Shown here: positions 1-15,371 of the stretch, in pieces
Layout of the letters: each line of letters starts with the position of its first letter
Numbering within the stretch: the stretch's first letter is position 1
NCBI GenBank assembly: GCA_964654465.1
Contig: CAZZIO010000046.1
Coordinates: 1-15,371, forward strand
DNA from: an uncultured Dictyoglomota bacterium
GTDB taxonomy: Bacteria; Dictyoglomota; Dictyoglomia; Dictyoglomales; Dictyoglomaceae
Direction of reading: 5' to 3'
DNA length: 15,371 nucleotides
The notes under the pieces: generated by a model
What the model saw: only the letters and a program-made list of their open reading frames with translations
Told to the model about the DNA's origin: nothing
Database searches by the model: none
Program-made: the position numbers and the translations under genes

Positions 1-279
1 TATCTCAAAAGCCATAACAGGATCCATTTTGTAGAGATTATTTAGTATTACAATATCTACACTCTTCTCCAATTTAGTTTCTAATCGAGAAACTATATCT
101 CCAATCTCCAAAAGTTCTAAATCTCTTTGTAAATGAATTGCAATATCAATATCGCTATCTTCTCTAAAATTTCCTTTAACTAAGGATCCAAATATTATTA
201 CAAAATCAACTGGATAGTCTATTATAATCTCTTTTAGCTCTTCTTTAGTTTTTTCAACAATATCTTTTTTCATAACCAT
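1..279 (-). CDS. Minimal nucleotidyltransferase (MNT, Pol-beta superfamily; MntA-like antitoxin). 3' end runs off the window. Start ATG at 279 or 273.
   Basis: Not in the ORF track. Manual translation: MVMKKDIVEKTKEELKEIIIDYPVDFVIIFGSLVKGNFREDSDIDIAIHLQRDLELLEIGDIVSRLETKLEKSVDIVILNNLYKMDPVMAFEI... It has the exact GS-X10-DxD motif and a later VDIV acidic strand. Starts about 10 nt after the epimerase stop. Confidence 0.88.
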   Translation of the reverse strand, partial: MVMKKDIVEKTKEELKEIIIDYPVDFVIIFGSLVKGNFREDSDIDIAIHLQRDLELLEIGDIVSRLETKLEKSVDIVILNNLYKMDPVMAFEI

Positions 280-288
280 CAAAGTAAT

Positions 289-1362
289 TTATGAAATTTC
301 CTTTATTACAACCTCTTTCATCTTTGGAGCAGAATAGTAATCACTAAAATCTACATAATCTCCTTCTTTAATATTTCTCTCAGCTTCTAATATTTTTTCT
401 ATGTTTGCTCCCACCAATGTATTCCATCCATATTTTACAGTCTCAATCCACTCAGTTTCATCCCTTAAAGTAATACAAGGTACTCTTAACCAAAATGCTT
501 CTTTCTGTACTCCACCAGAATCTGTAAATATGGCAAAGGCATTCTTCTCCAAACTTATCATATCCAAGTATCCAACAGGATCTATTAATAAAATATTCTC
601 ATTATCTAAATAATTCCCTAAATTAAACTCCTTAATTCTGCTTCTTGTTCTGGGATGAATAGGAAATACAGCTTTTCTTCTAAATTGAGCTATAGCCAAA
701 AGTATATTTTTTAATCTATCATAATTATCTGTGTTTTCAGCCCTATGAATAGTAAGAAGATAATATTCTTTAGGATTTAGCTTCAAGTTTTGTAATATTT
801 TACTTTTTTCTTCACTCATTCTTGAAAAATACATAAGAGCATCAAACATTATATCTCCTACCAAATAAACTCCTTTTGTTATACCTTCTTTTTCCAAATT
901 TTTAACTGCTGTCTCTGTAGGACAAAACAGTATATCAGAAAGATGGTCTGTCACAATTCTATTTATCTCCTCAGGCATCATTTTATTAAAACTTCTAAGT
1001 CCAGCCTCCACATGAGCTAATTTTACATGAAGTTTAGAAGAAGCTAAAGCACCTGCCAAAGTAGAATTTGTATCTCCATAGACTATAACTAAATCTGGCT
1101 TTCTCTTCATAAGTACTTCTTCTATGGCTATTAACATTTTTCCTGTCTGCTCACCATGAGAACCTGATCCAATACCAAGATTGTAATCAGGCTCTGAAAT
1201 TTCAAGTTCTTTAAAGAATATATCACTCATATTATCATCGTAATGCTGACCTGTATGTACAATTGTCTCTTTAAAACCTTCCTCTCTTAAGACTTTTGAA
1301 AGAGGAGCAAGTTTAATAAATTGTGGTCTTGCACCTACAATGGAGACTATATTAAGTCCCAT
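289..1362 (-). CDS. wecB: UDP-N-acetylglucosamine 2-epimerase (non-hydrolysing)
   Basis: Motifs GARPQFIK, HTGQHY, VYGDTNS, HVEAGLRS, MPEEINR, TIHRAEN, TDSGGVQKEA, LRDETEW. SD-like AAGGAAG upstream. Confidence 0.95.
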   Translation of the reverse strand: MGLNIVSIVGARPQFIKLAPLSKVLREEGFKETIVHTGQHYDDNMSDIFFKELEISEPDYNLGIGSGSHGEQTGKMLIAIEEVLMKRKPDLVIVYGDTNSTLAGALASSKLHVKLAHVEAGLRSFNKMMPEEINRIVTDHLSDILFCPTETAVKNLEKEGITKGVYLVGDIMFDALMYFSRMSEEKSKILQNLKLNPKEYYLLTIHRAENTDNYDRLKNILLAIAQFRRKAVFPIHPRTRSRIKEFNLGNYLDNENILLIDPVGYLDMISLEKNAFAIFTDSGGVQKEAFWLRVPCITLRDETEWIETVKYGWNTLVGANIEKILEAERNIKEGDYVDFSDYYSAPKMKEVVIKEIS

Positions 1363-1588
1363 CTAAATTCTCTTCCTTTCTTTATATAAACTTACCTCTT
1401 ATCATAAAAGAAATATCATAATTTCTTTATAATCTATATAATCTATCAAATTTTCTATTTCAATTTCCTTTACAGGACACAAAAATTTATAAATCTAAAT
1501 TATCATCAGACATAGCCAAAAATCATTACCACTAATAAAAAAATCTCTTTCTAACAGTCTCTAATCCTTATGTTTTGAAATGTATAAT

Positions 1589-3481
1589 CTATGATACTCC
1601 ACTTTCTTTTATGACTTTTTTTGTTAAATTCATATCCTTTTTATATGTGGGAATTAATCCTATAATTACCCTTTCAATTTCTTTCTTTTCCCTTTTCTTT
1701 GCAGATTCCAGTAGTTCTTGTAGTTTTCTATTAAAAGTATTCCTATCAATACCCATACTTGAAACTATCTTATATATCTTAGGATGAGAAGTTTTTTCAA
1801 TTTTTTCTTCCTTTTCCCAAAGTTCTTCTTTTAATTTTTCTCCAGGTCTAAGTCCAATTATCTTTATTCCTATATCATCAACCGAATGCCCAGAAAGTTC
1901 AATAAAGTTTTTTGCGAGATCTAAAATCTTTACTGGCTTTCCCATATCAAGCACAAAAATATCTCCAGAAGTTCCTATACTTCCTGCCTGAAGCACAAGT
2001 CCTACAGCCTCCGGAATAGTCATAAAATATCTTTCCATCTCAGGATCTGTAATAGTAATAGGGCCACCACTTTCAAGTTGTTTCTTAAAAACCTCCAGTA
2101 CACTTCCTCTACTTCCTAAAACATTCCCAAATCTTACCGCAATAAAACTGGTTTTTGAATGACTATTGTAAAATTTAACTAACATCTCTCCTATTCTTTT
2201 TGTAGCTCCCATAATGTTAGCAGGATACACCGCCTTATCAGTAGATATAAAGATGAATTTCTCTGCTCCTACATGTATACTTGCATCCATGACATTTATG
2301 GTACCAAATACATTATTAAATATCGCTTCATCAGGATTTTCCTCCATAAGAGGCACATGTTTATGGGCTGCTGAATGAAATATTATCTGAGGCCTCTCCT
2401 TTTCAAAGACATAAAAAATTCTATCTCTATCCTTTATATCTGCTATATATGATTTTAAAGAAAGATCTGGATAATATTTTTTTAATTCCATTTCTATATT
2501 AAAAATACTATTTTCTCCTCTTCCAAGAAGAATAAGTTTTTCTGGCTCATATTTTGCTACTTGCCTACATATCTCAGAACCTATGGAACCTCCTGCACCA
2601 GTTACAAGAATTTTCTTATTTTTTATATATTCCCTTATTTTCTCCGAATCTAAGTTTATTACATCCCTTTCAAGCAGGTCCTCAATTCTTACATTTCTTA
2701 TCTTGTTAATACTTACTCTGCCATCTATAAGCTCCCAAATACCAGGAAGTGTCTTTACGGGAATTTTCAATTTAGAAGCCATACCAACTATATCCCTTAT
2801 TAAAGATGAGGGGGCTGAAGGTATAGCAATGAGTACCTCATGCACAGAATTATTCTTTGCAATCTGATGCAGAGAGAATATAGGTCCTAAAACCTTTACT
2901 CCATGAATTATTTTTCCAATTTTATTCTTATCATCATCAAGAAAGCCAACAACGTTATAATTTAACTCCTTATGGGTTTTAATCTCCCTTAATATTTTCT
3001 CTCCCGCATCACCAGCCCCAATGATAATTACATTTTTGTAATGATTATTTAGAGGTTTCGGATGTTTAAAAGTTTCATAAAACCATCTTATAAAAGCCCT
3101 TAATGAAAAAAGCATTATAAGAGACAAAACATAGGAGATTACAAATATAGAACGAGGATAACCCTCTAATGGAAATATCATACCTAAAAGATAAAAATTA
3201 AGCTTTTCAAAAGTAAGTGCAAGGGTTAAATCCTTTAATGCGTCTAAACTAAAATATTCCCAAAGAGTTCTATATATTTTAAATACTAAGAAATAAAACA
3301 TAAAAAATATGATAATTTCCCTTAAAAGAGCGTACATTATAATTGGGATATACTTTTGGGGAATTGAAAATTCAAATCTTAGAAAAAAAGCAAGAAATAT
3401 AGAAATTATAAAAAAAAACCAGTCCAATAAGATACGTACCCAAGTTTTTTTAATTATTCTAACCAATTCAACCCCCAACAT
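1589..3481 (-). CDS. Membrane-bound nucleoside-diphosphate sugar 4,6-dehydratase (CapD/WbpM/PglF family). True start may be TTG at 3466, after a GGGGGT SD-like site.
   Basis: About 4 N-terminal TM segments, GAGDAG motif, NAD-binding TGAGGSIG, FHSAAHKHVPLME, ISTDKAV, MGATK (M replacing Y of YxxxK, typical of this subfamily), VRFGNVLGSRGSV, GLRPGEKL. Confidence 0.93.
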   Translation of the reverse strand: MLGVELVRIIKKTWVRILLDWFFFIISIFLAFFLRFEFSIPQKYIPIIMYALLREIIIFFMFYFLVFKIYRTLWEYFSLDALKDLTLALTFEKLNFYLLGMIFPLEGYPRSIFVISYVLSLIMLFSLRAFIRWFYETFKHPKPLNNHYKNVIIIGAGDAGEKILREIKTHKELNYNVVGFLDDDKNKIGKIIHGVKVLGPIFSLHQIAKNNSVHEVLIAIPSAPSSLIRDIVGMASKLKIPVKTLPGIWELIDGRVSINKIRNVRIEDLLERDVINLDSEKIREYIKNKKILVTGAGGSIGSEICRQVAKYEPEKLILLGRGENSIFNIEMELKKYYPDLSLKSYIADIKDRDRIFYVFEKERPQIIFHSAAHKHVPLMEENPDEAIFNNVFGTINVMDASIHVGAEKFIFISTDKAVYPANIMGATKRIGEMLVKFYNSHSKTSFIAVRFGNVLGSRGSVLEVFKKQLESGGPITITDPEMERYFMTIPEAVGLVLQAGSIGTSGDIFVLDMGKPVKILDLAKNFIELSGHSVDDIGIKIIGLRPGEKLKEELWEKEEKIEKTSHPKIYKIVSSMGIDRNTFNRKLQELLESAKKREKKEIERVIIGLIPTYKKDMNLTKKVIKESGVS

Positions 3482-3514
3482 ATTTTATCTTTCTTAATCT
3501 ACATTTTTTTGTTT

Positions 3515-3523
3515 ATTATATCA
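3515..3523 (-). promoter_or_regulatory. Extended -10 promoter (TGaTATAAT) for the polysaccharide operon
   Basis: Reverse complement of attatatca is TGATATAAT, 33 nt upstream of the ORF. The -35 region is poor (CTTTTA at 17 nt spacing). Confidence 0.6.
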
Positions 3524-3541
3524 TAAAGAATGTAATTTAAA

Positions 3542-3557
3542 AGTGATTTTCGTCACT
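3542..3557. promoter_or_regulatory. Palindrome AGTGA-N6-TCACT resembling a CRP/FNR-family operator
   Basis: Perfect 5-6-5 inverted repeat that matches the GTGA-N6-TCAC core of the CRP consensus. It lies between divergent genes. Confidence 0.45.
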
Positions 3558-3597
3558 ACTGACAATCTTCATAAATTTATTTTTAAATCATCTCATA

Positions 3598-3626
3598 TTG
3601 CAAAAATTTTTCATTTGTGATAATAT
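3598..3626 (+). promoter_or_regulatory. Putative sigma70-type promoter of the peroxiredoxin
   Basis: TTGCAA (3598-3603) followed by TGtGATAAT (3616-3624) or TAATAT (3621-3626, 17 nt spacer). Confidence 0.5.
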
Positions 3627-3630
3627 AAAA

Positions 3631-3653
3631 TTGAAAATAATAATTATTTTAAA
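3631..3653. promoter_or_regulatory. Fur/PerR-like operator
   Basis: TTGAAAATAAT-A-ATTATTTTAAA is an 11-1-11 inverted repeat with one mismatch. It contains the ATAATnATTAT core shared by Fur and Per boxes and sits between the -10 and the SD of a peroxide-defence gene. Confidence 0.55.
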
Positions 3654-3668
3654 AAAGGAGGTGTAATT

Positions 3669-4346
3669 ATGGAGAACCTTGAAAGAAAAGGGCTTCCACT
3701 TCTTGGTGAACCTTTCCCAGAAATGAAAGTTTTAACCACTCATGGTGAGAAAGTACTTCCTAATGACTATAAAGGTAAATGGTTTGTACTTTTTAGTCAT
3801 CCTGCAGATTTTACTCCAGTATGTACAACTGAGTTTGTGGCCTTTCAAAAAAGATATGAAAAATTTAGAGCTCTCAATACAGAATTAATAGGTTTAAGTA
3901 TTGACCAAGTCTTCAGTCACATAAAATGGGTTGAATGGATAAAAGAAAAGTTAGGCGTTGATATTGAATTCCCAATTATAGCAGATGATACAGGAAAGGT
4001 GGCAGAAAAGCTTGGTTTAATCCATCCAGGAAAAGGAACAAACACTGTAAGAGCTGTATTTGTCGTTGATGATAAGGGAATAATTAGATTAATACTTTAC
4101 TATCCACAAGAAGTAGGAAGAAATATGGACGAGATTTTAAGAGCAGTAGAAGCATTACAGGTATCTGACAAATATGGAGTAGCCATGCCCGCTCACTGGC
4201 CAGATAGTGAAGTTGTTGGTAAAGACCATGTAATAATTCCTCCTGCAAAGGATGTAAAAACAGCCAATGAAAGACTTGAATCTGCTAAAAAAGGAGAAAT
4301 TGAATGCTTTGATTGGTGGCTCTGCCATAAGAAATTAACAAGATAA
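3669..4346 (+). CDS. Peroxiredoxin, Prx6 family (archaeal/thermophile type with C-terminal Cys pair)
   Basis: Peroxidatic motif [30 protein letters not shown]-terminal CFDWWLC. Strong SD AAGGAGGTG at 3655-3663. Confidence 0.95.
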
Positions 4347-4368
4347 TAAAAAATAATAGTAGAAATTT

Positions 4369-4407
4369 AAATAAGGTATCCCCTAAACAGGGGATACCTT
4401 ATTTTTT
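4369..4407. terminator. Intrinsic terminator between convergent peroxiredoxin and MFS genes, possibly bidirectional
   Basis: Perfect 16-bp stem AAATAAGGTATCCCCT-aaac-AGGGGATACCTTATTT (4369-4404) with a T-run to 4407 on the + strand. Confidence 0.8.
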
Positions 4408-5552
4408 GATTCCTTTATACATTTTATTGAAATTAAAGTGGAAAGCAAAGAAACAAAGGTTAGAAAACGATACATACCTTTCAATCCAGAAATATCAGCT
4501 ACAAATCCTGAGATTACAGGTCCAATTGTTGAAGATAAGGACATACCCATACTTAATAAACCTTGAGCAGTAGCCCTTTCTTCTGGATTAACTAAATCAT
4601 TCATATAAACAACAGGGATAGTACCTATAACAGCAAAGGTTAAAGAGTGTAATAATTGAATTAAGATTATATGCCACGGATTAGTAGTTAATGTATAAAG
4701 AAAGATCCTTATAGGAAGAACAATAGAGGTAAATACTAATAAAGGTTTTCTTCCTACCTTATCAGATAAACGTCCCCAGATAAGCATAAAAGGAATTTCG
4801 GAAAAGGAGCTTGCTGAATAAGCAAAACTTATATGTTTACTTTCACCCCCTAAGGATCGAATTAAAAGATTCACATTAGAAGATGCTCCAAGAAGAGCTA
4901 CGTAGTAAATAATGTAAAATAAAAGAAAATTTCTAACATCAGATCTTAAAATTAATCTCTTTATATTCCTAAAGTCAACCTTAGATACACTAATCTTAGA
5001 AGAAGGTTCTTTCACAATAAGAGTTATTGTTAAGCCTAACATATATATTAAACCAATCATAACAAACATAATCTTAGGCTCTACCAGTTTAGGATAAAAA
5101 CCTGTAACAAGCATAAGTAATAAAAAACCTATACTTCCCCATATTCTTATAGAGGCATAATGGGTACCAGTATTTTCGGATATAGCATAGTCCATAACAA
5201 GTACATTAGCCATAGTAGTTATAGTACTTACAAAAACCCCTAAAAGAAAATAAACAAATATAAAAGTCCAAAAACTATTCAATTTAGGAAAAACAAGAGA
5301 GTAAAGAATAATAAGCATAATAAAGCTTAAAATAATAAATGGCTTTCTCTTCCCTATCTTATCTGATAAATAACCTATATATACCTGAAAAATAGTCCCA
5401 GAAAGCGATGAGATAGCAGATAAAAGCCCTATCATTCCAATAGAAAAACCTTTTATTTCTCTTAAATAAACAGGTACAAAGGAGAAGATAAATACCCAAG
5501 CAGAAAAGTATATAAAAAAGAATACTTTTAATAAAAAAATCTCTTTTTTCAT
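4383..5552 (-). CDS. Major facilitator superfamily transporter (12 TM; substrate unknown). Likely start ATG 5552 rather than 5603.
   Basis: Duplicated MFS motif A (GYLSDKIGKRK; GRLSDKVGRK), YASIRIWGSIGF typical of MFS_1-like/LacY-like members, and hydrophobic periodicity. The extension to 5603 overlaps the promoter region. Confidence 0.9.
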   Translation of the reverse strand: MKKEIFLLKVFFFIYFSAWVFIFSFVPVYLREIKGFSIGMIGLLSAISSLSGTIFQVYIGYLSDKIGKRKPFIILSFIMLIILYSLVFPKLNSFWTFIFVYFLLGVFVSTITTMANVLVMDYAISENTGTHYASIRIWGSIGFLLLMLVTGFYPKLVEPKIMFVMIGLIYMLGLTITLIVKEPSSKISVSKVDFRNIKRLILRSDVRNFLLFYIIYYVALLGASSNVNLLIRSLGGESKHISFAYSASSFSEIPFMLIWGRLSDKVGRKPLLVFTSIVLPIRIFLYTLTTNPWHIILIQLLHSLTFAVIGTIPVVYMNDLVNPEERATAQGLLSMGMSLSSTIGPVISGFVADISGLKGMYRFLTFVSLLSTLISIKCIKESKNKVSPV

Positions 5553-5559
5553 AAGTTTT

Positions 5560-5588
5560 ATTTTACATTTATGATAAACTATAAACAA
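5560..5588 (-). promoter_or_regulatory. Putative promoter of the MFS gene (probably leaderless mRNA)
   Basis: TTGTTT (5588-5583), 17 nt, TAAAAT (5565-5560), 7 nt, ATG (5552). No SD present. Confidence 0.5.
5572..5580 (+). promoter_or_regulatory. Putative extended -10 (TGaTAAACT) for the DinB-family gene
   Basis: TGn-TAnnnT about 50 nt upstream of ATG 5631. Confidence 0.4.
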
Positions 5589-5630
5589 GACCATCAAATC
5601 CACAAATATACCTTTTAGGAGGTGTCCATC

Positions 5631-6095
5631 ATGAGAGATCGCTTAGAAAGGATAATAAAATACATGAATGATGCATTCCAAAAAGACAAAGGATTATGGT
5701 CTCACTCTGTAATGGATGTTCTTGAAAATGCCACTTCAAAAGAGGCAGTTTTTAAAAAGGAAAATACCCATAGTATTTGGGAGATAACAAATCATTTAAT
5801 TTTTGGGAAAGAATATCTCTTAAGTATCCTTGAAGGAAAAGATCTTCCTTCCGAAGATGACTTTAAAACTCCCACTGATACCTCTGAAGAGGCTTGGAAA
5901 AATACAGTTAAAAGACTTGAAGACGCACATAATAAGCTTATAGAAATATTAAAAACCAAGAATGATGATGACCTTGATAAAAATATTGGAGAATATGGTA
6001 CATTAGAAGACAATCTATATGGTATAATAAGTCATGACTGTTATCATGCTGGGCAGATAGTTTTTATTCTACAACTTATGGGAATTGAGTTATAG
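5631..6095 (+). CDS. DinB/YfiT-family protein (putative metal-dependent thiol S-transferase or hydrolase). Start ATG 5631.
   Basis: HSIWEITNHL and HDCYHAGQI supply the three-His metal site of the DinB four-helix fold. SD AGGAGG at 5617-5622 favours ATG 5631 over GTG 5622. Confidence 0.88.
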   Translation: MRDRLERIIKYMNDAFQKDKGLWSHSVMDVLENATSKEAVFKKENTHSIWEITNHLIFGKEYLLSILEGKDLPSEDDFKTPTDTSEEAWKNTVKRLEDAHNKLIEILKTKNDDDLDKNIGEYGTLEDNLYGIISHDCYHAGQIVFILQLMGIEL

Positions 6096-6143
6096 ATGTT
6101 AACAAATTTTTAAAATAATTAATATAACTTTAACCCTTTTTGG

Positions 6144-6172
6144 TTGACACCATATTAAATATTTGATACCTT
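6144..6172 (+). promoter_or_regulatory. Strong orphan sigma70-type promoter
   Basis: Perfect TTGACA (6144-6149), 17 nt spacer containing extended TG (6164-6165), TACCTT (6167-6172). No protein gene lies downstream on the + strand. Confidence 0.7.
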
Positions 6173-6178
6173 ATTTAA

Positions 6179-6320
6179 CGAAAGTTGATGTTATTAAAAA
6201 AGTTTAGGAATAAAAAGTAAGGTTAGTAAGTCTAAAAAAGTAAAAAGAGTAAGTTAGAGAAGACACCTCCCCCTCTCACCCCCTCCCCCTGAGTCCCCCC
6301 TCTCAGGGGGTTTATTTTTT
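6179..6320 (+). ncRNA. Candidate small regulatory RNA of about 140 nt with C-rich anti-SD motifs
   Basis: Bounded by the 6144-6172 promoter and the 6285-6321 terminator. A-rich 5' half, C-rich tracts at 6262-6301, and only a 10-codon ORF. Confidence 0.55.
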
Positions 6321-6321
6321 T
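6285..6321 (+). terminator. Rho-independent terminator, + strand oriented
   Basis: Stem CCCCCTGAG (6285-6293) / CTCAGGGGG (6302-6310), loop TCCCCCCT, followed by TTTATTTTTTT. Confidence 0.85.
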
Positions 6322-8116
6322 ATGAGACAATTTCACTATTTCTTTCCTCCCAATAATTAAATTGGGACATAAACATATGATAATAAATTCCTTTCTTTTT
6401 CATAAGTTCCTCATGATTGCCTATCTCTAAAATCCTTCCGTTTTCAATAACTATAATTTTGTCAACATTTTGCACAGTAGATAGTCTATGAGCAATAATA
6501 ATAGAAGTTCTTCCCTTAAGAAGGATCTCAATTCCCATTTGAAGTAATCTCTCAGTATAGGTATCTACACTCGCTGTTGCCTCATCAAGTATTATAATTT
6601 TAGGATTTGCAATAAGAGTTCTTGCTAAAGAAATTATTTGTCTTTGTCCTAAAGAAAGCCTCATACCTCGCTCATTAATGTTTGTATCATAACCCTTCTC
6701 CATATTAGAGATAAAATCATGGGCATAAACCTTCTTTGCTGTCTCAACTACTTCATCATAAGTAGCATCAAGTCTTCCATATTTTATATTTTCAAGAATA
6801 GTACCCGAGAATAAAAATGTATCCTGAAACATTACTGCGATCTGTTTTCTTAAGCTCTCTAATTTAATCTTTTTAATATTTATCCCATCAATAAGAATCT
6901 CTCCTTCTTGTGGATCATAAAATCTACATAACAGATTAACAATAGTACTTTTACCTGCACCTGTATGTCCAACAAGAGCCACTTTCTCCCCAGGTTTTAT
7001 TTTAAAACTTACATTATCCAAAACCTTTCTCTTTCCATCATAAGAAAAGGAGACATTTCTAAATTCTATTTCTCCCTTTATATCAATATCTATTGCATCT
7101 TCTTCCTCTTTTATATTGGGCTCTATATCCATTATTTCAAATATTCTCTCCGCACTTGCCATGCCTATAACAAAATTGTTATATAAATTAGAAAGGTTCA
7201 TTATAGGTCTCCAAAACATGCCTATATAGCTTGTAAATGCAATAAGAAGGCCTACAGAAATATCACCTGAATTTATCATCTTTACTCCAAAATAGAAGGT
7301 TATAACAGTACCTATTCCCCAAGAAAACTCCACCATAGGCCAGAATAAATCATTTATTCTCACAGCTCTAACAAAAGCCTGCCTTACATCCCACGCAAGC
7401 TCTGAGAATATATTTGCTCTATATTTTTCTGCTGTAAAATATTTAACAACTCTTATTCCAGAAAAGTTTTCATGAGTAAAAGCATTAAGGGTAGATCCCT
7501 TTTTCCTTACTACTTGCCATCTTTTTCTGCTTATGGTTTGTATTGAAAAAAGAACTATAAACAAAAGAGGCAGCATAGACATAGCGTATAAAGCAAGTTT
7601 TGAATTAAGATAAAACATTATTAACAAAGTAGCAATTATAGTAACAGAATCAGGTATAAGATTTGTAATACTCATATTAAAAAGATTTGCTAAAGAGTTT
7701 ACGTCACTTATTATTCTTGACAAAATTTTTCCCACTGGTCTTTCATCAAAAAAGGTAAAAGAAAGCTGTTGAATATGATTATATAAATCTTGCCTAATAT
7801 TTAATAATATTCCATGGGTAATCTTTGACATTCTTTGAGTTCTTTTCTTAGCAGATATCATAGATATGAGATTTAAGACAATCATTAAAATGCCAACAAG
7901 AATTAATCCATTACTATCCTTATCTTTAATAAATCTATCAATAGCAAATTTTATAAAATATGGGTTTAGAAGATCCACTGCCATAACCACAAAAATAAAA
8001 AATAACACTATAAAGACTTCTCTCTTATATGGCTTCAAATATTTAAAAAGCCTCTTAAGTATGTCTATACTTACCTTCTCTTCTAACTTTTCGTCTTCTC
8101 TTAATGCATAAGGCAT
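6320..8116 (-). CDS. ABC exporter, fused TMD-NBD subunit B of a heterodimer (TM288/TmrA-like)
   Basis: N-terminal 6-TM domain, Walker A GHTGAGKS, degenerate signature LSLGQ, Walker B IIILDE, H-loop IAHR. SD GAGGGGG lies inside the upstream gene. Confidence 0.93.
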   Translation of the reverse strand: MPYALREDEKLEEKVSIDILKRLFKYLKPYKREVFIVLFFIFVVMAVDLLNPYFIKFAIDRFIKDKDSNGLILVGILMIVLNLISMISAKKRTQRMSKITHGILLNIRQDLYNHIQQLSFTFFDERPVGKILSRIISDVNSLANLFNMSITNLIPDSVTIIATLLIMFYLNSKLALYAMSMLPLLFIVLFSIQTISRKRWQVVRKKGSTLNAFTHENFSGIRVVKYFTAEKYRANIFSELAWDVRQAFVRAVRINDLFWPMVEFSWGIGTVITFYFGVKMINSGDISVGLLIAFTSYIGMFWRPIMNLSNLYNNFVIGMASAERIFEIMDIEPNIKEEEDAIDIDIKGEIEFRNVSFSYDGKRKVLDNVSFKIKPGEKVALVGHTGAGKSTIVNLLCRFYDPQEGEILIDGINIKKIKLESLRKQIAVMFQDTFLFSGTILENIKYGRLDATYDEVVETAKKVYAHDFISNMEKGYDTNINERGMRLSLGQRQIISLARTLIANPKIIILDEATASVDTYTERLLQMGIEILLKGRTSIIIAHRLSTVQNVDKIIVIENGRILEIGNHEELMKKKGIYYHMFMSQFNYWEERNSEIVS

Positions 8117-9847
8117 TTAAACTAATTCCCCCTCAATAAAGGCAAATTTTCCGTACTGCTCTTGATAAATCTCATAATACCTACCCTTTTTTCTTAAAAG
8201 TTCCTCATGTTTTCCTCTTTCTATAATCTCTCCCTTATCAAGTACTATTATTTCATCAGCATTTTTTATTGCAGAAATCCTATGAGCAATAATAATTTTT
8301 GTTACTCCCTTATATTTCTCCAAAGATTTTTGAATATAAAGCTCTGTCTCCAAATCAAGAGCAGAAGTAGGATCATCAAGAATCAAAATCTTAGCAGATC
8401 TTACCAATGCACGAGCAATAGTTAGCCTTTGTTTCTGACCTCCAGAAAGGCCAAGACCTCTTTCTCCTATAACAGTATCAAGCTTTTCTGGTAGCCTCAT
8501 TACAAAGTGATAGGATCTTGTATCCTTTAAAGCTTGTATTATTCTTTCATCATCTATATCCTTCCCAAGTTTTATATTCTCCCTTACTGTATCAGAGAAA
8601 AGAAATATATCTTGAGGAACATATGAAAGATGTTCTCTCAAAAATTTTAAATCAATTCTTCTTATATCAATACCATCTATTAATATCTCACCTTCCCAAG
8701 GCTCATAAAATCTTCCTAATAAGTTCACTAAAGTGGTCTTCCCAGAACCTGTGAGCCCAATAATACCAAGAGTTTCCTCAGGTTTTAGATGGAAACTAAT
8801 TTTCTTTAACACATACTCATCTTTATATTTAAAAGATACATTCTTAAACTCTATTTCTCCCTTTATATCCCTAATATCTACTTTCTCAGTTATGTAAGGT
8901 CTTTCCGATCTCTCTTTAAATAACTTATCTATCTTCTTTAAGGAAGCCAAACACTGAGCTAACATATTAACAATCCAACCCCCTAATCTCACAGGCCATA
9001 CAATCATAGAAACATACCATGAATAAGAAACTAACGTACCAATAGACATCTTTTCTGCAATTACTAAAAGTCCGCCAATAGTAATAGATAAAGCTATTGA
9101 AAAATTAGTTAAAAATTCCATCCAAGGAAAATACTTTGCAAAAATATTTGCCTGTTTTACATTTAACTCATAATTTCTCATATTCTCTTTAAAAAACTTC
9201 TCTATCTCATATTTCTCTCTACCAAAGGATTTTACAACTCTTATTCCAGCTATATCTTCTTGAGCAGTAGTATTCATTCTAACCCCTTGATCTGATATCT
9301 CTCCATATACCTCATCATTTTCTTTTTCAAGTCTATAAGCTGTATAGCCGATAAAGGGAATTACGAGAAGTACTATTAAAGTTAATCTGAATTCAATAGA
9401 GAAAAGGATTATACTGGCGATAATAAAATAAAAAAGCTGTTCTATAAAAAAGACCAACCCAAAACCAAAAGTAAACCAAATATTTTCAATATCTTCTCTG
9501 ATTCGGGACATAAGCTCACCAGTATTTATGCCATCAAAAAAAGAAAAAGGCAAAGTTTGAAGATGTTCGAAAAGATCCTTTCTCAGCTCATAAGCAAGTC
9601 TTGATCCACCTAAATCCATAAAATATTCTTTAAAGTATCCAAGAAATACTCTGGAAATTGTTATCAAAGTTAAGAATAGAAGTAATCGAGATAAAGGAGT
9701 TATATCTTTCCCTATAATTACTTTATCAACAAGCACTCCAACAATTTTAGGATTAAACATATCAAGAGATAAAGCCAAAATAGCGCAGAAAATAGCCGAT
9801 AAAAAAAAGTGCAAGTTATTCTTTATATATTTCTTTAATCTCATCAT
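8117..9847 (-). CDS. ABC exporter, fused TMD-NBD subunit A of a heterodimer (TM287/TmrB-like)
   Basis: TM domain, Walker A GLTGSGKT, signature LSGGQ, degenerate Walker B ILILDD. Its stop codon directly abuts the partner's ATG (TAA-ATG). Confidence 0.93.
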   Translation of the reverse strand: MMRLKKYIKNNLHFFLSAIFCAILALSLDMFNPKIVGVLVDKVIIGKDITPLSRLLLFLTLITISRVFLGYFKEYFMDLGGSRLAYELRKDLFEHLQTLPFSFFDGINTGELMSRIREDIENIWFTFGFGLVFFIEQLFYFIIASIILFSIEFRLTLIVLLVIPFIGYTAYRLEKENDEVYGEISDQGVRMNTTAQEDIAGIRVVKSFGREKYEIEKFFKENMRNYELNVKQANIFAKYFPWMEFLTNFSIALSITIGGLLVIAEKMSIGTLVSYSWYVSMIVWPVRLGGWIVNMLAQCLASLKKIDKLFKERSERPYITEKVDIRDIKGEIEFKNVSFKYKDEYVLKKISFHLKPEETLGIIGLTGSGKTTLVNLLGRFYEPWEGEILIDGIDIRRIDLKFLREHLSYVPQDIFLFSDTVRENIKLGKDIDDERIIQALKDTRSYHFVMRLPEKLDTVIGERGLGLSGGQKQRLTIARALVRSAKILILDDPTSALDLETELYIQKSLEKYKGVTKIIIAHRISAIKNADEIIVLDKGEIIERGKHEELLRKKGRYYEIYQEQYGKFAFIEGELV

Positions 9848-9904
9848 ATTAAATTACACCTTTATGAAATTTTATTTTCCAGTTATTTAGTAAGCCAAGT
9901 TTAT

Positions 9905-9910
9905 ATTATA
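9905..9910 (-). promoter_or_regulatory. Putative -10 (TATAAT) for the ABC exporter operon
   Basis: TATAAT on the - strand just downstream of the 9924-9963 terminator and about 57 nt before ATG 9847. No good -35. Confidence 0.4.
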
Positions 9911-9923
9911 TCCCTCCCCCTAC

Positions 9924-9963
9924 AAAAATAAAACCCCTTTCGCCTTATTCATGACGAAAGGGG
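9924..9963 (-). terminator. Rho-independent terminator of the murJ/metallophosphoesterase transcript
   Basis: On the - strand: CCCCTTTCGTC-atgaataa-GGCGAAAGGGG (11 bp including one G-U pair) followed by TTTTATTTTT. Confidence 0.85.
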
Positions 9964-9996
9964 GAATTAGAAAAATAAGATTTTTACTAAGGTTAT

Positions 9997-11397
9997 TTAT
10001 TTAACAACATTAAGATTCAAGTCTATTACAGTGTCATTGTCATCAGGGGGAAGATCAGAAAAATAAGAAATCAAAATTTTTCCTATTAAGATTTCATTAT
10101 CATCCTCAGAATGTGCTAAATTATCAAAGAATTCTAATACTAATTTACTAATTTTCTCGTCTCCTTTGTAATGAGAGATAATAGCATCAGGCAAAATATC
10201 AATGATCTTGGAATTTGGAGCTATATCCGAGGGTAAATCAATAGATAAAAGATTATTGGCCTTTAACATTGCCTCTACCCTTGATAAACCTTTCTTCATT
10301 AAATAACCCGCAAAATATTGTGGGATAATATTTTTTATCCCTGTCTTTAAAAAGTCATAAGCATAGTCTTGAAAAGAAATACCTTTTATATCGAAATCAA
10401 TCTTTTCTACCTTTTTATTACCGACAATTAGTTTGTTATCCTCTGTTAATGTTATCATTCTGTAAGGACACGGATATGTAACAAGAGAACCTGTCTCTAT
10501 ATCCAAGAGAAAATTACCATTTTGAAAATCCTTTCTCACTATATCTTGGGCATGGAAATGGCCAGTAAATATCACATTTAGTCCTTTTTCTGCAAATAAT
10601 TTAGCTACTTCCTCATAATTATTTATAATATATTCAGGAAATAACATCTTTTGACCTTCGAAGTGTTCTAAAATACCATGATGCATCATTCCAAAAACAA
10701 TTTTGTTTTCCTTTTTAGCAATTTCAACTTGTTTTAAAATCCAGTCTAAAGTCTCTTTCGATATTTCACCCTCTGTTTTTGAATATGGATTATATTTACA
10801 TGCATCTATAGCGATTATCCTTACATCTTTTATAGGTTCAACTACATAACTTAAAGAATTATTATCCACAGCTATTGCCTCTTTATATCCAAATTCCCAG
10901 TAAATTTTCTTAAACTCTTCTGGTGTCACACTTTTTACAGCTTCTACCTTATCCCCATCATACTTGTAAGCATGATTATTATTTATATCATGATTACCAT
11001 TTATAACATAAACTTTTTTACCGTTATCTTTTAGTTCCTTTAAATAACCGGCAAATTCAAGATGAGATATCTCTTCCCCATCTTTTGTCAAATCTCCTGG
11101 AATCAAAACAATATCCACATCACTACTTTTAAGATCTTCTATTACCGCCTTTAAAATAGCAGGACTTTCTAAGATCATCTTTCTATCCCTCATAATATAT
11201 TCTTCAAATTTAGGACCTCTTTTAATTAACAAGTTAGGGCTGAAGTAATGAGGATCAGAAAATATTGCTATTTTTGCTTTTACCTTTTCCATATTTGCCA
11301 TTGCAGGATTTAAAAAATTAAATAAAGATAGAAGTAAAAAAACTATAAGTAAACTCCCTATTACTAATACTACTGTTATACTTTTTTTCTTAAACAT
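9997..11397 (-). CDS. Calcineurin-like metallophosphoesterase with N-terminal signal or membrane anchor
   Basis: All five motifs present: SDPH, PGDLTKDG, GNHD, MMHH, GHFH. Basic then hydrophobic N-terminus. SD AAGGGGGT. Confidence 0.9.
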   Translation of the reverse strand: MFKKKSITVVLVIGSLLIVFLLLSLFNFLNPAMANMEKVKAKIAIFSDPHYFSPNLLIKRGPKFEEYIMRDRKMILESPAILKAVIEDLKSSDVDIVLIPGDLTKDGEEISHLEFAGYLKELKDNGKKVYVINGNHDINNNHAYKYDGDKVEAVKSVTPEEFKKIYWEFGYKEAIAVDNNSLSYVVEPIKDVRIIAIDACKYNPYSKTEGEISKETLDWILKQVEIAKKENKIVFGMMHHGILEHFEGQKMLFPEYIINNYEEVAKLFAEKGLNVIFTGHFHAQDIVRKDFQNGNFLLDIETGSLVTYPCPYRMITLTEDNKLIVGNKKVEKIDFDIKGISFQDYAYDFLKTGIKNIIPQYFAGYLMKKGLSRVEAMLKANNLLSIDLPSDIAPNSKIIDILPDAIISHYKGDEKISKLVLEFFDNLAHSEDDNEILIGKILISYFSDLPPDDNDTVIDLNLNVVK

Positions 11398-11516
11398 TAA
11401 CTTACCCCCTTTTTAAAATTTTTTCATTTTCAAATATAAGGGAAGTACATTAAACATGGGTTTAAATACTCTTAAGAATTTATTGGAAGAGTTCAAAGAT
11501 TTTTTAAAGAGGGAGA

Positions 11517-13124
11517 TTATTTAATTCCCAAAATTCCTGATACTAATTTTAAACCTTTATCAATTAGACTCCAAATTTTTCTTGCCTCATCAATTTTCCA
11601 TCTTTTTCCTAAATATAGATATAACATCACAACAATACCTATAGCAGAAAATAAATTAAAAGCAAGATAGATTTGTTTTGATGGTAAAACACAATCTAAA
11701 AATTTATAGATAAAAAACGCAAGCATACCTATAAGAGCTCCAGAAATCATAAATTTTATAATATCTCTTTTGGTCTCTTTTGAAAGAACTTCTCCTATTT
11801 TTAATCTAAAGGATCTGTAAAGCAGTACAAAAGAAATAAAAGAAGCTAAAGAAGTAGCAAGAGCAAGACCTCTATGGGCAAGAGGTTTAATAAATATAGT
11901 GTTTAATGCTATATTTGAAAGGAGAGCTAAAATAGAGTTAATAGTAGGTGTTTTTGTATCATGAAGGGCATAAAATCCTCTCACCATAATTAAATTAATA
12001 CTCATAAATACTAATCCAATAGAATAGAAGGTTAATGATTCTGATGTCCTTTGGGTAGCAATAGCATCAAAAGCTCCTCTTTGAAAAGCAAGCTGGACTA
12101 TAGGGGTTGAAAGAAATATGAGTCCAAAAGTGGCTGGAATAATAAAAAATAACAGTGCTCTTATGATTTTTTCTATAGATAGTTTGAATTTTTCTAAATT
12201 ATCATTTTGAGCACTAAAAGCAAGGTCAGTATATATGGCTGTAGCGAGGGCATTTACAAATAAATTCATAGGAAGTTGATAAATTCTACTTGCATAATTC
12301 AAGGCTGATATACTACCTTCAGAGAGATAAGATCCAAAAATTCTATCCACTGCCATATTTAAGATTCCTACACTTTGTCCCAAGAATATAGGCCCTATAA
12401 GGATAAGCGCTTTTTTTAGACCCTCATATTTTAGATTAAACTCCCATCTTAAATTTACCCCAATTCTTTTAAGAGCTGGAATAAGAAGAATATATTGGAC
12501 AAATACATTAGCAAGATAGCCCCATGGAAGTATGTAAGCCCCAAATATTTTATGAAATAAAAATATAGATATAATGAAAATAACACTTCCAAGTAGTCCT
12601 GCAAGATTTGGAATAAAAAAACTTTTTTGAGAATTATAAAGTCCAGTAATTAAACCATAAGTGCCCCAAAATATGATAGAAGGAAGCATAATATAGGTAA
12701 AACTTAAAGTAAGATTTCTTGTTTCTTGATTAAATCCTGGAGCCAAAATATTAACTATAAAGGGAGCTAAGAAGTACGCAAGAAGTGTAGTACCAATAAG
12801 GATTATCAATATGTCAGTAAGAAGAATAGAAGTAAACCTTTCTGCTTCTTCTTTTCCTTTCTTTTCTCTCCATTCAGCATAAAGAGGTATAAATACTGCT
12901 GATAATGCTCCTGAAATAAGTCCCGCAAGAACTCCAGGTATAGCTTGTGCCACTATAAAACTATCAGTAAATTTTTTTGCTCCAAAAAAGGCAGCAATCA
13001 TCATTTCCCTTAAAAAGCCTATTATCCTACTAATAGTTGCAAGGATTGTAATCAAGATTGCTGCCTGAGTGACGTTTTGTCTAAATATTAAATTTTTAAA
13101 CTTTTTCTTTAAACCACTATCCAT
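11517..13124 (-). CDS. murJ: Lipid II flippase MurJ (MviN)
   Basis: SRIIGFLREMMIAAFFGA, SAVFIP, LAPGF, GSISALNYASRIYQLP, FQRGAF, RGFYALHDTKTP, GLALATS. About 14 TM segments. Confidence 0.93.
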   Translation of the reverse strand: MDSGLKKKFKNLIFRQNVTQAAILITILATISRIIGFLREMMIAAFFGAKKFTDSFIVAQAIPGVLAGLISGALSAVFIPLYAEWREKKGKEEAERFTSILLTDILIILIGTTLLAYFLAPFIVNILAPGFNQETRNLTLSFTYIMLPSIIFWGTYGLITGLYNSQKSFFIPNLAGLLGSVIFIISIFLFHKIFGAYILPWGYLANVFVQYILLIPALKRIGVNLRWEFNLKYEGLKKALILIGPIFLGQSVGILNMAVDRIFGSYLSEGSISALNYASRIYQLPMNLFVNALATAIYTDLAFSAQNDNLEKFKLSIEKIIRALLFFIIPATFGLIFLSTPIVQLAFQRGAFDAIATQRTSESLTFYSIGLVFMSINLIMVRGFYALHDTKTPTINSILALLSNIALNTIFIKPLAHRGLALATSLASFISFVLLYRSFRLKIGEVLSKETKRDIIKFMISGALIGMLAFFIYKFLDCVLPSKQIYLAFNLFSAIGIVVMLYLYLGKRWKIDEARKIWSLIDKGLKLVSGILGIK

Positions 13125-13135
13125 AAACAGATGTA

Positions 13136-13141
13136 ATTATA
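13136..13141 (-). promoter_or_regulatory. Putative -10 (TATAAT) of murJ, very short leader
   Basis: TATAAT ends 11 nt before ATG 13124. No SD. Confidence 0.45.
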
Positions 13142-13206
13142 CATCAAAAATAGAGAATTTAAAAAGATCACGATTAATAATTTTTAATATTTCTTAAATA
13201 TTTCTT

Positions 13207-13215
13207 TGATATAAT
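13207..13215 (+). promoter_or_regulatory. Extended -10 (TGaTATAAT) of the ABC importer operon
   Basis: Perfect TGnTATAAT upstream of SD GGAGGTG (13242-13248). Confidence 0.6.
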
Positions 13216-13253
13216 AATTCGTGAAAAAAATAACAATTTGTGGAGGTGATAGC

Positions 13254-14168
13254 TTGAAAAATATATCTAAACTAATCTTCACATTAACCATTCTTCTCTT
13301 TATTCTTTCAGCAAACACCTTTTCCCAAATTCAAGAGATAAATGTTTTAATACCTTTTGGACCATCTATAATTCCCTTTGCTCCTTTAATGTCAAGCAAT
13401 AATCAAGTAGATATAAAAATTAACTTTATTATTTGGAGAACAATTGATGAACTGGCAATAAAAGTTAAAGATGGGAATTTTGATATATTGATTTCTCCTT
13501 TTGTAACCCTTGTAAATCTTCAAAATAAAGGAATTATTAAAGCAAGACATTTAGCCACATTTAACTGGGCTTCTTTTTATCTTGTTACTAATAAAAATAA
13601 GAAAGATTTTGTAGGAGAAAATATATATATCGCTCAAAAAGGATCAACCCAAGATATTATATTTTCTATTTATCTACAGGAAAAGAATTTAAAAGACAAA
13701 GTCCATATCTACTATTCTACACCTCAAGAAATAACCACACTTTTTATAGCTAAAAAGATAAATTATGCCCTACTTCCAGAACCCTATGTTTCCATGTGCC
13801 TTTCTGAAGGAGGATCTATAATCCTCGATATCCAAAGGGTATATAGAGATTTTAATAAAGCCCATCTTCCTATAACATCTATAGGTATTAATGAGAAAAT
13901 AAGGAAAGATTTAGTAATAAAAATAGATAGAATTTTTAGGGATAATTTCAAGAAACTTCATGATAATCCAGATCCTTTTATAGAAAAAGCATCCAGTATA
14001 TTGAAGATAGATAAAAATATAATAAACTTATCCTTTAAGAGACATTCCTTTAGATATCAAGGAAACTCAGCTAAAAAAGACTTATTAACATTTTTAAACT
14101 TTATTTTGGAAAAAACACCTCAAGTAATAGATAATAAATTGCCTAATGAAGAATTCTTTAAGATTTAA
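13254..14168 (+). CDS. ABC importer substrate-binding protein (NitT/TauT, SsuA/THI5-like). Likely TTG start at 13254.
   Basis: Signal-peptide-like N-terminus (MKNISKLIFTLTILLFILSANTFS), KGST and YALLPEPY motifs of this SBP class, operon context. SD GGAGGTG 5 nt before TTG. Confidence 0.8.
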   Translation: MKNISKLIFTLTILLFILSANTFSQIQEINVLIPFGPSIIPFAPLMSSNNQVDIKINFIIWRTIDELAIKVKDGNFDILISPFVTLVNLQNKGIIKARHLATFNWASFYLVTNKNKKDFVGENIYIAQKGSTQDIIFSIYLQEKNLKDKVHIYYSTPQEITTLFIAKKINYALLPEPYVSMCLSEGGSIILDIQRVYRDFNKAHLPITSIGINEKIRKDLVIKIDRIFRDNFKKLHDNPDPFIEKASSILKIDKNIINLSFKRHSFRYQGNSAKKDLLTFLNFILEKTPQVIDNKLPNEEFFKI

Positions 14169-14883
14169 AATAATATTTTGGATTATATTTTTTATATTTT
14201 GGTACCTTATGGGGTTAAGGGTGAATTCCCCTGCCATATTCCCTTATCCCCATAAGGTAATCTTAAAGACCATTTCTTTACTTAGTGACACAGAATTTTT
14301 ATACCACCTCAGTTTAACTATTATTAGATCATTAGTAGGCCTCTTTTTAGCCTTCTTTATAGGATTTATATTAGGAAACATAAAAAATAAAAAATTCTAT
14401 GTGGGAATAAGGAATATAATAGATATTTTTCAGAGTAATCCTTTAATTATATGGATTACCTTAGCCTTACTATGGTTTGGTTTTGGAAGCAGAACTGTCA
14501 TTTTTACTACCTTTATTATGCTATTTCCTAATCTTTATCTTTCTGTCTATCATGCTATTAAAAATGTCCCTACTGAATATATAGAACTTTTCAAAATATA
14601 TCCCATCTCTAAAAAGGATTATATTACCAAATTCCTAATTCCTTATATTAAACCATTTATACTTCCAGTATTAGCAAATTCAACCATTTCATCCTTCAAA
14701 ATATCAGCCATGTCTGAATTTTTTGCTACTAATAATGGAATAGGCTTTCTCTTAAGCTATGCAAAAACCTTTCTCAATACTGAATATATCTATGCCATAT
14801 CTATATATCTCTTTATTATAAGTAAACTCTTAGAATACATATTTAGAAAAATGAATATCTTAAAGGAGGATCTTAAATCGTGA
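14146..14883 (+). CDS. ABC importer permease (NitT/TauT, SsuC-like)
   Basis: FPYPHKV, HLSLTIIRSLVG, NPLIIWITLALLWFGFG, SEFFATNNGIGF. Overlaps the SBP stop codon. Confidence 0.88.
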   Translation: MKNSLRFKIIFWIIFFIFWYLMGLRVNSPAIFPYPHKVILKTISLLSDTEFLYHLSLTIIRSLVGLFLAFFIGFILGNIKNKKFYVGIRNIIDIFQSNPLIIWITLALLWFGFGSRTVIFTTFIMLFPNLYLSVYHAIKNVPTEYIELFKIYPISKKDYITKFLIPYIKPFILPVLANSTISSFKISAMSEFFATNNGIGFLLSYAKTFLNTEYIYAISIYLFIISKLLEYIFRKMNILKEDLKS

Positions 14884-15371
14884 CTGCAATTAATATTATA
14901 AACCTGAAAAAAAGCTTTGATGACAAAAAAGTATTAAATGGAATATTTTTGAAAGTAGAAGAAGGAGAAAAAATTGTAATCAAAGGCCCAAATGGCTGTG
15001 GTAAAACCACTCTTCTTAAAATTATTGCAGGCCTAATAAAGCCTGATGAAGGTATTGTAGAAATAGGACCAGGCATTAAAATATCCTCTATGTTTCAAAA
15101 TCCTATCTTTTTGCCCTGGTTAAATATGGAAGAAAACCTTAATTTAACTTGTAAAGATCCAGTAAAATTAAAAGAACTTATAGATTATTTTAAATTGAAA
15201 AATTACCTGAATCTATTTCCTCAACAGCTTAGCGGGGGTTATCTGCAGATATTTTCTTTTGTAAGGACTCTTACTATTCCCCATAATTTATTACTCCTTG
15301 ATGAACCCTTCAAATCTCTGGATATAAATCTGAAAGAAAAAGCTAAAGCCTTTCTTAAATATCATTTAGAT
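14880..15371 (+). CDS. ABC importer ATP-binding subunit (SsuB/TauB-like); runs off the right edge
   Basis: Not in the ORF track. GTG start overlaps the permease TGA (GTGA), SD AAGGAGG at 14863-14869. Translation MTAINIINLKKSFDDKKVLNG...GPNGCGKTT...MFQNPIFLPW...FPQQLSGGY...LLLLDEPFKSLD. Confidence 0.92.
   Translation, partial: MTAINIINLKKSFDDKKVLNGIFLKVEEGEKIVIKGPNGCGKTTLLKIIAGLIKPDEGIVEIGPGIKISSMFQNPIFLPWLNMEENLNLTCKDPVKLKELIDYFKLKNYLNLFPQQLSGGYLQIFSFVRTLTIPHNLLLLDEPFKSLDINLKEKAKAFLKYHLD

Follow-up and report, generated by a model that had tools for sequence, protein, structure and literature searches.

The closest described counterparts of the element analysed here are bacterial small RNAs (sRNAs) with C-rich elements. 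The AbcR1/2 and related ‘cuckoo’ (alpha-r15) sRNAs of Alphaproteobacteria are characterized by CU-rich motifs that resemble the anti-Shine-Dalgarno (anti-SD) sequence, and RepG of Helicobacter pylori has a C/U-rich terminator loop that is the proposed pairing element against a G-run in a messenger RNA (mRNA) leader. C-rich regions are present in RoxS, FsrA and CsfG of Bacillus subtilis; RoxS and FsrA use theirs to bind targets, and G-rich sponge RNAs can neutralize sRNAs with C-rich regions (PMC8216469). Here we analyse a stretch of 15,371 nucleotides (nt) from an uncultured Dictyoglomota bacterium (assembly GCA_964654465.1, contig CAZZIO010000046.1, positions 1 to 15,371; hereafter the window), in which a candidate sRNA unit at 6099–6321 of the + strand, between two convergent genes, is most likely a free-standing gene for a ∼140-nt non-coding RNA in Dictyoglomus. 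An earlier reading made from the letters of the window (the sequence-only reading) had placed an orphan transcription unit here, and this proposal is well supported by comparison with related genomes (promoter, terminator covariation and a new gene junction in a sister genus). On balance, the sequence evidence tips somewhat towards an undescribed, chaperone-independent sRNA that would pair with Shine-Dalgarno sites, being RoxS/RsaE-like in action and unrelated by descent.

Compared with RoxS/RsaE, FsrA and CsfG of Bacillota (PMC8216469), the candidate would likewise be a short RNA with a predicted promoter of its own and an intrinsic terminator, its several predicted-unpaired C-rich regions are complementary to G-rich ribosome-binding sites, and it would act without a dedicated hub protein. 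It differs in that its C-runs, 5–6 long, are confined to a single-stranded tract of 21 nt and the terminator loop instead of being spread over several hairpin loops, in that its 5′ two-thirds are an A/G-rich stretch predicted to be unstructured, in its host, a thermophile of the phylum Dictyoglomota, and in that neither its sequence nor its structure matches any Rfam family. Over the whole window, no Rfam family reached its gathering score, in agreement with the novelty supposed earlier, and at E-values up to 10 on 6050–6400 only chance-level matches appeared; RsaE was not among the 10 listed, and the best, RsaOG, lay on the wrong strand with 18 bits against a gathering score of 50. Because Rfam gives no match, we regard the likeness to RsaE/RoxS as a functional resemblance drawn by analogy, not as homology. 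Unlike RepG, the candidate carries a longer C-rich tract just upstream of its loop, and no G-repeat target was identified for it. No report of a small or non-coding RNA, or of transcription-start mapping, in Dictyoglomus, nor of any regulatory RNA in the phylum Dictyoglomota, was found in the full texts searched, although supplementary files might hold unlisted candidates.

Conservation and architecture of the unit

Eleven Dictyoglomaceae genomes of three genera were compared (g1, n = 5, including the window's own genome G000; g2, n = 1; g3, n = 5). G000 comprises 1.91 Mb in 72 contigs, has a G+C content of 31.6% and is 99.97% complete by markers. The 233-nt unit is present in four of the five g1 genomes, the window's own counted, with identities of 84% in G003 and G004 and 81% in G001, and it recurs in the g2 genome G005 at 77%. 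It was not found in G002 (g1, 86% complete), and BLAST of the unit against its own genome returned the locus itself and no second copy. A query that included both flanking genes gave 75–78% identity, below the 81–84% of the unit within the genus, suggesting that the unit is conserved more strongly than its flanks. All g1 carriers, among which are the two complete genomes of the genus, have it at the same DinB/ABC transporter junction, and in G005 it directly follows a 1-Cys peroxiredoxin gene, which runs straight into the unit with no terminator between, with a MurJ-family gene facing it on the other side. In the g3 genomes G007, G009 and G010, which retain the junction, the DinB gene lies end to end with the ABC gene and the unit is missing (1–5 nt between the matches), and the unit was not seen after the peroxiredoxin gene in the four of five g3 genomes that were readable, three of which show an evident terminator hairpin. 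Standing whole behind a different, unrelated gene in each of two genera, the unit behaves as a single gene, and the different junction in the sister genus implies that it moves as a whole, from promoter to terminator.

Copies of the identical hairpin occur in sequence records of uncultured Dictyoglomus sp. and of a Dictyoglomaceae bacterium, and the 18-nt hairpin core was matched in 32 stretches of metagenome contigs, 8 of them low-G+C, Dictyoglomus-like copies of the unit and 24 unrelated (G+C 40–70%). The conservation alignment described below spans two genera and holds 12 distinct sequences, of which 5 come from genomes and 7 from metagenome loci. Throughout this alignment, the last 52 nt (ACACC...CAGGGGG) are invariant but for one extra C and one T>A. 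The RNA body is variable, with insertions and deletions that are not multiples of three, yet contains two small conserved islands, GGAATAAAA and AGTCTAAAAA. Such a pattern fits a promoter followed by spacer RNA under loose constraint and a functional 3′ end under tight constraint; the promoter and the C-tract, for which conservation in sister genomes had been proposed as a check, are both kept, and the hairpin covaries in paralogues (see below). As a separate observation, many unrelated high-G+C metagenome contigs (L043, L045, L047, L050, L054, L055, L060, L067, L068 and others) share a longer common motif around the 18-mer, CCGTCCCCCCTCTCAGGGGGGACC..CAGGGGGGTC, which has the appearance of a repeat belonging to other organisms and has no relation to the Dictyoglomus unit.

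The promoter-like site was read correctly from the letters of the window, with TTGACA, a 17-nt spacer, an extended TG and TACCTT all in place (Table 1). Its conservation is promoter-like: the positions of TTGACA, TG and TAnnTT are fixed in the 12 sequences, while the spacer differs among them both in its first 8 nt and in its length of 17 or 18 nt. The stretch AATATTTG(A/G)TA, TG included, is fixed, and the −10 hexamer reads TA[C/T/G][C/T]TT among relatives. Of the composite motif TTGACA-N14-15-TGnTAnnnT, the genome holds 15 copies (both strands), a single one of them in the window, compared with a chance expectation of ∼6 genome-wide estimated from base composition. Twelve of the 15 occurrences lie in the crude intergenic DNA (∼12% of the genome is left intergenic by the crude calls of open reading frames, ORFs). 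Among the 14 copies other than that of the window, 12 lie at most 300 nt upstream of a co-directional called gene start, and a thirteenth has a ribosome-binding site and ATG visible by eye; the window's copy is the sole intergenic one with nothing to transcribe. The gene-proximal position of 12 of these 14 supports the motif as a specific promoter mark in this genome and, indirectly, the window copy as an orphan promoter. The ORF list of the window has no + strand ORF of at least 50 amino acids (aa) in 6095–6965, and the next co-directional gene after the unit is 7,081 nt off.

Upstream of this site, the sequence-only reading had missed that the unit begins ∼45 nt earlier, at an AT-rich block that has no second occurrence in the genome, even with 9 mismatches allowed, and holds a weak second promoter-like pair, TTAACA-18-TATAAC. 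The block is possibly an UP-like element or a regulator site. Comparison by eye with the PerR/Fur and UP-element consensus sequences was unconvincing and was dropped. On the − strand, the promoter scan lists a promoter-like GTGTCA-18-TATATT (9/12) at 6121–6150, which overlaps the + strand TTGACA and would direct transcription antisense to the DinB gene; in DNA so rich in A and T, the match is probably fortuitous.

The body at 6180–6263 (84 nt) is composed of A43 T21 G19 C1 and gives way to the C-rich tract, just as had been noted, and of the 84-nt windows in the crude intergenic DNA of this genome, just 0.17% hold at most one C (or one G on the other strand). A small ORF in the body was considered and rejected, as the 10-codon ATG frame of the window is not conserved and G003 is without the ATG. 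The C-rich tract is likewise uncommon in composition: on the two strands of the 1.9-Mb genome together, only 7 windows of 30 nt hold 18 C or more. The GC-rich terminator with a same-strand U-tract was borne out, with 9 pairs (7 G–C) and a place on the + strand in a terminator scan that lists 15 terminator-like sites in the window as against 6.5 ± 2.9 in shuffles; the sister genus (G005), too, retains a T-rich tail, with no gene overlapping it. Dictyoglomus grows at ∼70–75°C. In the predicted fold at 37°C, parts of the body pair with the tail, and at 60 and 75°C the terminator hairpin alone survives, leaving 6264–6284 and the loop at 6294–6301 unpaired.

Table 1. Features of the candidate sRNA unit and its flanks (window coordinates)
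Feature	Position	Strand	Basis or remark
AT-rich upstream block TTAACAAATTTTTAAAATAATTAATATAACTTTAACCCT	6099..6137	+	nearly invariant in 12 distinct sequences, two genera
−35 hexamer TTGACA	6144..6149	+	invariant in 12/12 sequences; part of composite promoter motif
Extended −10, TG-a-TACCTT (TG 6164-6165, TACCTT 6167-6172)	6164..6172	+	17-nt spacer ends in TG + one base
Predicted 5′ RNA body, inferred start near 6178-6180	6179..6263	+	composition, alignments, folding
C-rich tract CACCTCCCCCTCTCACCCCCT (RNA CACCUCCCCCUCUCACCCCCU), 21 nt, proposed seed	6264..6284	+	one C insertion/deletion and one T>A among 12 sequences
Terminator hairpin CCCCCTGAG/TCCCCCCT/CTCAGGGGG	6285..6310	+	9-base-pair stem, 6285-6293 with 6302-6310; 7 G-C
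Terminator loop TCCCCCCT (RNA UCCCCCCU), 8 nt, proposed second seed	6294..6301	+	unpaired in predicted fold at 60 and 75°C
Terminator U-tract TTTATTTTTTT	6311..6321	+	overlaps stop codon of converging ABC gene
DinB_2-family gene, co-directional upstream neighbour	5622..6095	+	ORF list; Pfam DinB_2 at 1e-08
ABC transporter gene (ABC_membrane + ABC_tran domains), converging neighbour	6320..8116	-	ORF list; Pfam

The flanking genes are convergent, as had been read (Table 1). Elsewhere in the window, a hairpin at 4369–4404 with a perfect 16-base-pair (bp) palindromic stem and T-runs on both sides lies between a peroxiredoxin gene (+) and a converging gene of the major facilitator superfamily (−), and is probably a bidirectional terminator.

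Related hairpins downstream of ldh and other C-rich sites

The 3′ hairpin of the unit belongs to a small paralogous family downstream of ldh, a point that had escaped the sequence-only reading. A covariance model made from the last ∼100 nt of the unit was run against 151 genomes. The unit itself scores 107–121 bits in G000, G001, G003, G004 and G005, and a second class scores 33–62 bits in G009, G007, G010, G000 (C65:76495-76602, − strand), G003, G002 and G001; matches below ∼33 bits are scattered over unrelated families, and those checked by position resemble generic terminators. In six of the seven genomes ldh ends just before the second-class hairpin, which in G010 is preceded by ldh 3′-end-like sequence only, with ldh identified by Pfam for G009 and G000 and judged from sequence for the other genomes. 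It is present in all three genera, including g3, which has only the ldh copy, and it directly follows the ldh stop codon without a promoter-like site, its T-tract being weak or absent in g3.

Like the free-standing unit, the ldh-downstream element consists of a pyrimidine-rich tract, a 9-bp G–C-rich stem and a loop that reads UCCCCCCU or one of the variants UCUCCCCU, CCUCCCCU, UCCCCCUU and UCCCCCU, whereas the promoter-like site and the absence from g3 are peculiar to the free-standing unit. When sRNA and ldh hairpins are aligned jointly (10 rows), 90 of 90 cells fall in standard pairs and five of the nine stem pairs are compensatory, with plain changes of C–G to U–A and of U–A to C–G, and the loop is kept. 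The observed covariation score is reached in 0 of 500 shuffles, and slid controls drop to 32–70% paired; as the rows are related and the structure was drawn from one of them, these figures flatter the result somewhat. Because the stem covaries while the loop stays, the hairpin is, on this comparative evidence, a selected RNA structure whose loop sequence matters, and the free-standing unit appears to be paralogous to an older ldh 3′-end module. Rfam gave no match for the ldh-downstream C-rich element, and no description of this hairpin was found in the literature searched.

The surroundings of the ldh hairpin differ among genomes. In G000, the gene after it encodes a KaiC-like ATPase with the ribosome-binding site AAGGGGGAA, and in G009 (hairpin at locus L034 1497-1560) and G010 a solute-binding-protein gene starts ∼15–25 nt from the hairpin, the 3′ arm of which (GGGGGAG or GGGAGGAG) might be the ribosome-binding site of that gene.

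Two further C-rich sites were seen in G000. Just after the 5S ribosomal RNA (rRNA), at C35:200-360, a promoter-like TTGACA-17-TAGTAT (TG-extended) precedes a long hairpin with a ∼31-nt C-rich loop, GTCCCCTTCCCCCCTCACCCATCACCCCCTA, followed by GGGAGGAG and then by the ATG start codon of a gene with a thioredoxin fold (WCPPC). Homologous C-tracts lie at G005:C14:444-472 and G009:C77:120146-120172, and Rfam gave no match for the G005 copy; the element could be a cis-acting anti-SD leader. A third C-rich site, at C4:20076-20125, reads GGACCCCCTTGAGGGTCCCCCTCCCCCCTTCC and then a T-run, and is among the seven C-rich 30-nt windows of the genome.

Proposed pairing with ribosome-binding sites

In the mechanism that we propose, a sigma-70-type promoter (TTGACA, 17 nt, TG-n-TACCTT) would set the start of transcription near 6179, and the intrinsic terminator at 6285–6321 would end it to give an RNA of ∼140 nt. 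At ∼70–75°C the terminator hairpin alone would be folded, leaving the 21-nt tract CACCUCCCCCUCUCACCCCCU and the loop UCCCCCCU exposed, and these C-rich elements would pair with G-rich Shine-Dalgarno regions (GGAGGUG, AGGGGG, GAGGGGGAGG) so as to block ribosome entry. Neither Hfq nor CsrA was found in the 99.97%-complete genome, where identical searches detected both in control genomes. Because no Hfq was found, the long G–C seed would itself supply the duplex stability required at high temperature, and an Hfq-binding, ARN-type role for the body was rejected on the same ground. We infer that an RNA is made from this promoter and that it acts in trans on ribosome-binding sites, and the same holds for the identity of the genes controlled.

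The complementarity on which this mechanism draws is readily observed. The 3′ end of 16S rRNA, read in two genomes of the same genus as none was found in the window's own assembly, is GGAUCACCUCCUUUCU, and the CACCUCC of the tract is the same as its anti-SD core, exactly as had been claimed. In the regions preceding 1,589 long ORFs from the crude calls (1,607 stop-to-stop frames), G rises to 0.31–0.46 at positions −14 to −8. The top Shine-Dalgarno 6-mers are AGGAGG, AAGGAG and GGAGGT, with a notable AGGGGG class, and GGGGG is present within −22 to −3 in 148 of 1,650 crudely called genes. The seed at 6256–6284 was paired at 70°C by RNAduplex with the start regions of these 1,650 genes and with internal sites of the same genes; the mean energy is −5.04 kcal/mol for start regions and −2.73 kcal/mol for internal sites, and 16 start regions as against 2 internal sites reach −12 or lower. 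Among the top predicted targets are a lipoprotein gene matched perfectly over 13 bp, a 215-aa gene with pairing over 16 positions at its site AGGGGGAGGUGUUUUU, and a gene with a glycerol kinase-like N-terminus, assigned by eye. Predicted target start regions include G000:C18:56231, C68:14376 (a glpK-like gene) and C65:113518. Genes with signal-peptide-like starts account for 18 of the top 50, compared with 13% of all 1,650. For targets 2 and 3, the G-rich ribosome-binding sites are kept in the sRNA-carrying genomes and plainer in G007, an anecdotal observation.

The ratio of GGGGG-N4-11-ATG to GGAGG-N4-11-ATG counts is 0.29–0.36 in the six genomes of g1 and g2 and 0.20–0.27 in the five of g3, with G002, in which the unit was not found, grouping with the carriers. 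The direction fits; as this is a single phylogenetic contrast between two lineages, the ratio was not counted as evidence.

Weighing the reading and its alternatives

A number of observations weigh against an sRNA that pairs with Shine-Dalgarno sites. With regard to expression, a search for sequencing runs gave 13 entries, all of them of DNA type. With regard to the promoter, TACCTT agrees with TATAAT at only three of six positions, and the site is absent from the 60 strongest of the 66 sites of the consensus scan of the window, so that its description as the best promoter in the window was overstated. With regard to the targets, shuffled C-rich seeds yield at least 16 strong hits in 3 of 40 cases and at least 18 signal-peptide genes among the top 50 in 6 of 40, exact complements of at least 10 nt number 138 genome-wide, 11 of them at called start regions, with no standout target, and neither G001 nor G003 keeps the best-scoring target in a syntenic position. 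The genome-wide gene calls are themselves crude, consisting of stop-to-stop ORFs with the start picked by Shine-Dalgarno match. Upstream, the DinB_2-family gene has no terminator-like site of its own in 6095–6285 in the terminator scan. At the 3′ end, the invariance of the 52-nt tail exceeds what generic pairing with ribosome-binding sites needs, and may reflect a partner that is either a protein or a single, exact RNA.

On account of the two shuffling results, the secreted-protein target set was rejected as specific evidence. The enrichment of the top targets for signal-peptide/solute-binding-type genes, which invites comparison with the AbcR1/2 ‘cuckoo’ sRNAs, is thus unspecific, and the candidate is unlike those sRNAs in having no homology to them, no Hfq and no tandem gene copies. 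Since shuffled seeds score alike and there is no exceptional complement, the mechanism is one of analogy and generic complementarity and is not specific to the actual order of the seed. The predicted pairing with ribosome-binding sites is real but generic, and the multi-target translational repressor proposed in the sequence-only reading is a putative one.

The serious rival takes the region to be the 3′ untranslated region (3′-UTR), terminator included, of whichever gene precedes it, which is dinB in the window and the peroxiredoxin gene in the sister genus, the sRNA arising by mRNA processing or the hairpin acting in cis as a stabilizer or terminator, and the conservation of TTGACA...TAnnTT having some other cause. 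In both contexts the unit directly follows a co-directional gene without a terminator of its own, which makes read-through and a 3′-UTR origin possible, and the paralogous hairpins hold a 3′-UTR position immediately downstream of ldh in 7 genomes. Such an origin is harder to reconcile with the same ∼230-nt unit standing behind two unrelated upstream genes, with a conservation that follows promoter logic (hexamers and TG fixed, spacer varying in sequence and length), with the gene-proximal position of the composite motif in most of its other occurrences, and with the terminator that the peroxiredoxin gene of the window's genome has for itself (4369–4404). We consider this rival unlikely, if deserving of respect.

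Somewhat less probable again is that the RNA is made and binds a protein that recognizes the C-rich loop and tract, or serves as a sponge or decoy for one exact G-rich RNA, with no general pairing to ribosome-binding sites. The near letter-for-letter invariance of the 52-nt tail in two genera goes beyond the need of a degenerate anti-SD seed and is in keeping with such a partner, as are the retention of the loop UCCCCCCU while the stem covaries in the paralogues and the equal success of shuffled C-rich seeds in target prediction. No candidate partner was identified, however, with Hfq and CsrA not found, and a long exact G-rich complement was not found elsewhere in the genome, the longest being 13 nt.

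That selection acts on the opposite strand, as DNA or RNA, through a G-quadruplex (with an i-motif opposite) serving as a roadblock or 3′-end structure where the converging ABC operon ends, is very improbable: the − strand of 6264–6310 does read G6-ACTCA-G5-A-G5-TGAGA-G5, a canonical motif (four runs of at least 3 G, loops of at most 7 nt), the converging gene reads towards the element in both contexts, and the scan finds no − strand terminator-like site downstream of the ABC gene's stop before 3166, yet a quadruplex needs G-runs only, whereas the loops are conserved and the hairpin complementarity covaries, it is the + strand that bears the T-tract, which G005 retains without an overlapping gene, the ldh paralogues lack four G-runs, and the promoter-like site and AT-rich block 130–220 nt away are left unexplained.

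The reading of the unit as an sRNA that pairs with Shine-Dalgarno sites can be extended, with considerable doubt, to the family as a whole. Dictyoglomaceae would then run a small network of C-rich ‘anti-ribosome-site’ RNA modules, comprising the ldh hairpin, the thioredoxin-fold leader loop and the free-standing sRNA; the sRNA would have arisen from a duplicated ldh 3′ hairpin that gained a promoter in the ancestor of two genera, and would be a dedicated repressor of G5-class messages in which a G–C seed replaces the chaperone at 75°C. We hold this extension to be improbable as a whole.

A C-rich anti-Shine-Dalgarno sRNA in Dictyoglomota would not be a new principle. If the RNA is real, it would extend this mode of riboregulation to a deep-branching thermophile lineage in which neither Hfq nor CsrA was detected, and would offer a natural case of RNA–RNA regulation kept stable at ∼75°C. 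The ldh-downstream paralogues would, in that event, provide a readable example of an sRNA gene born from a 3′-end hairpin.

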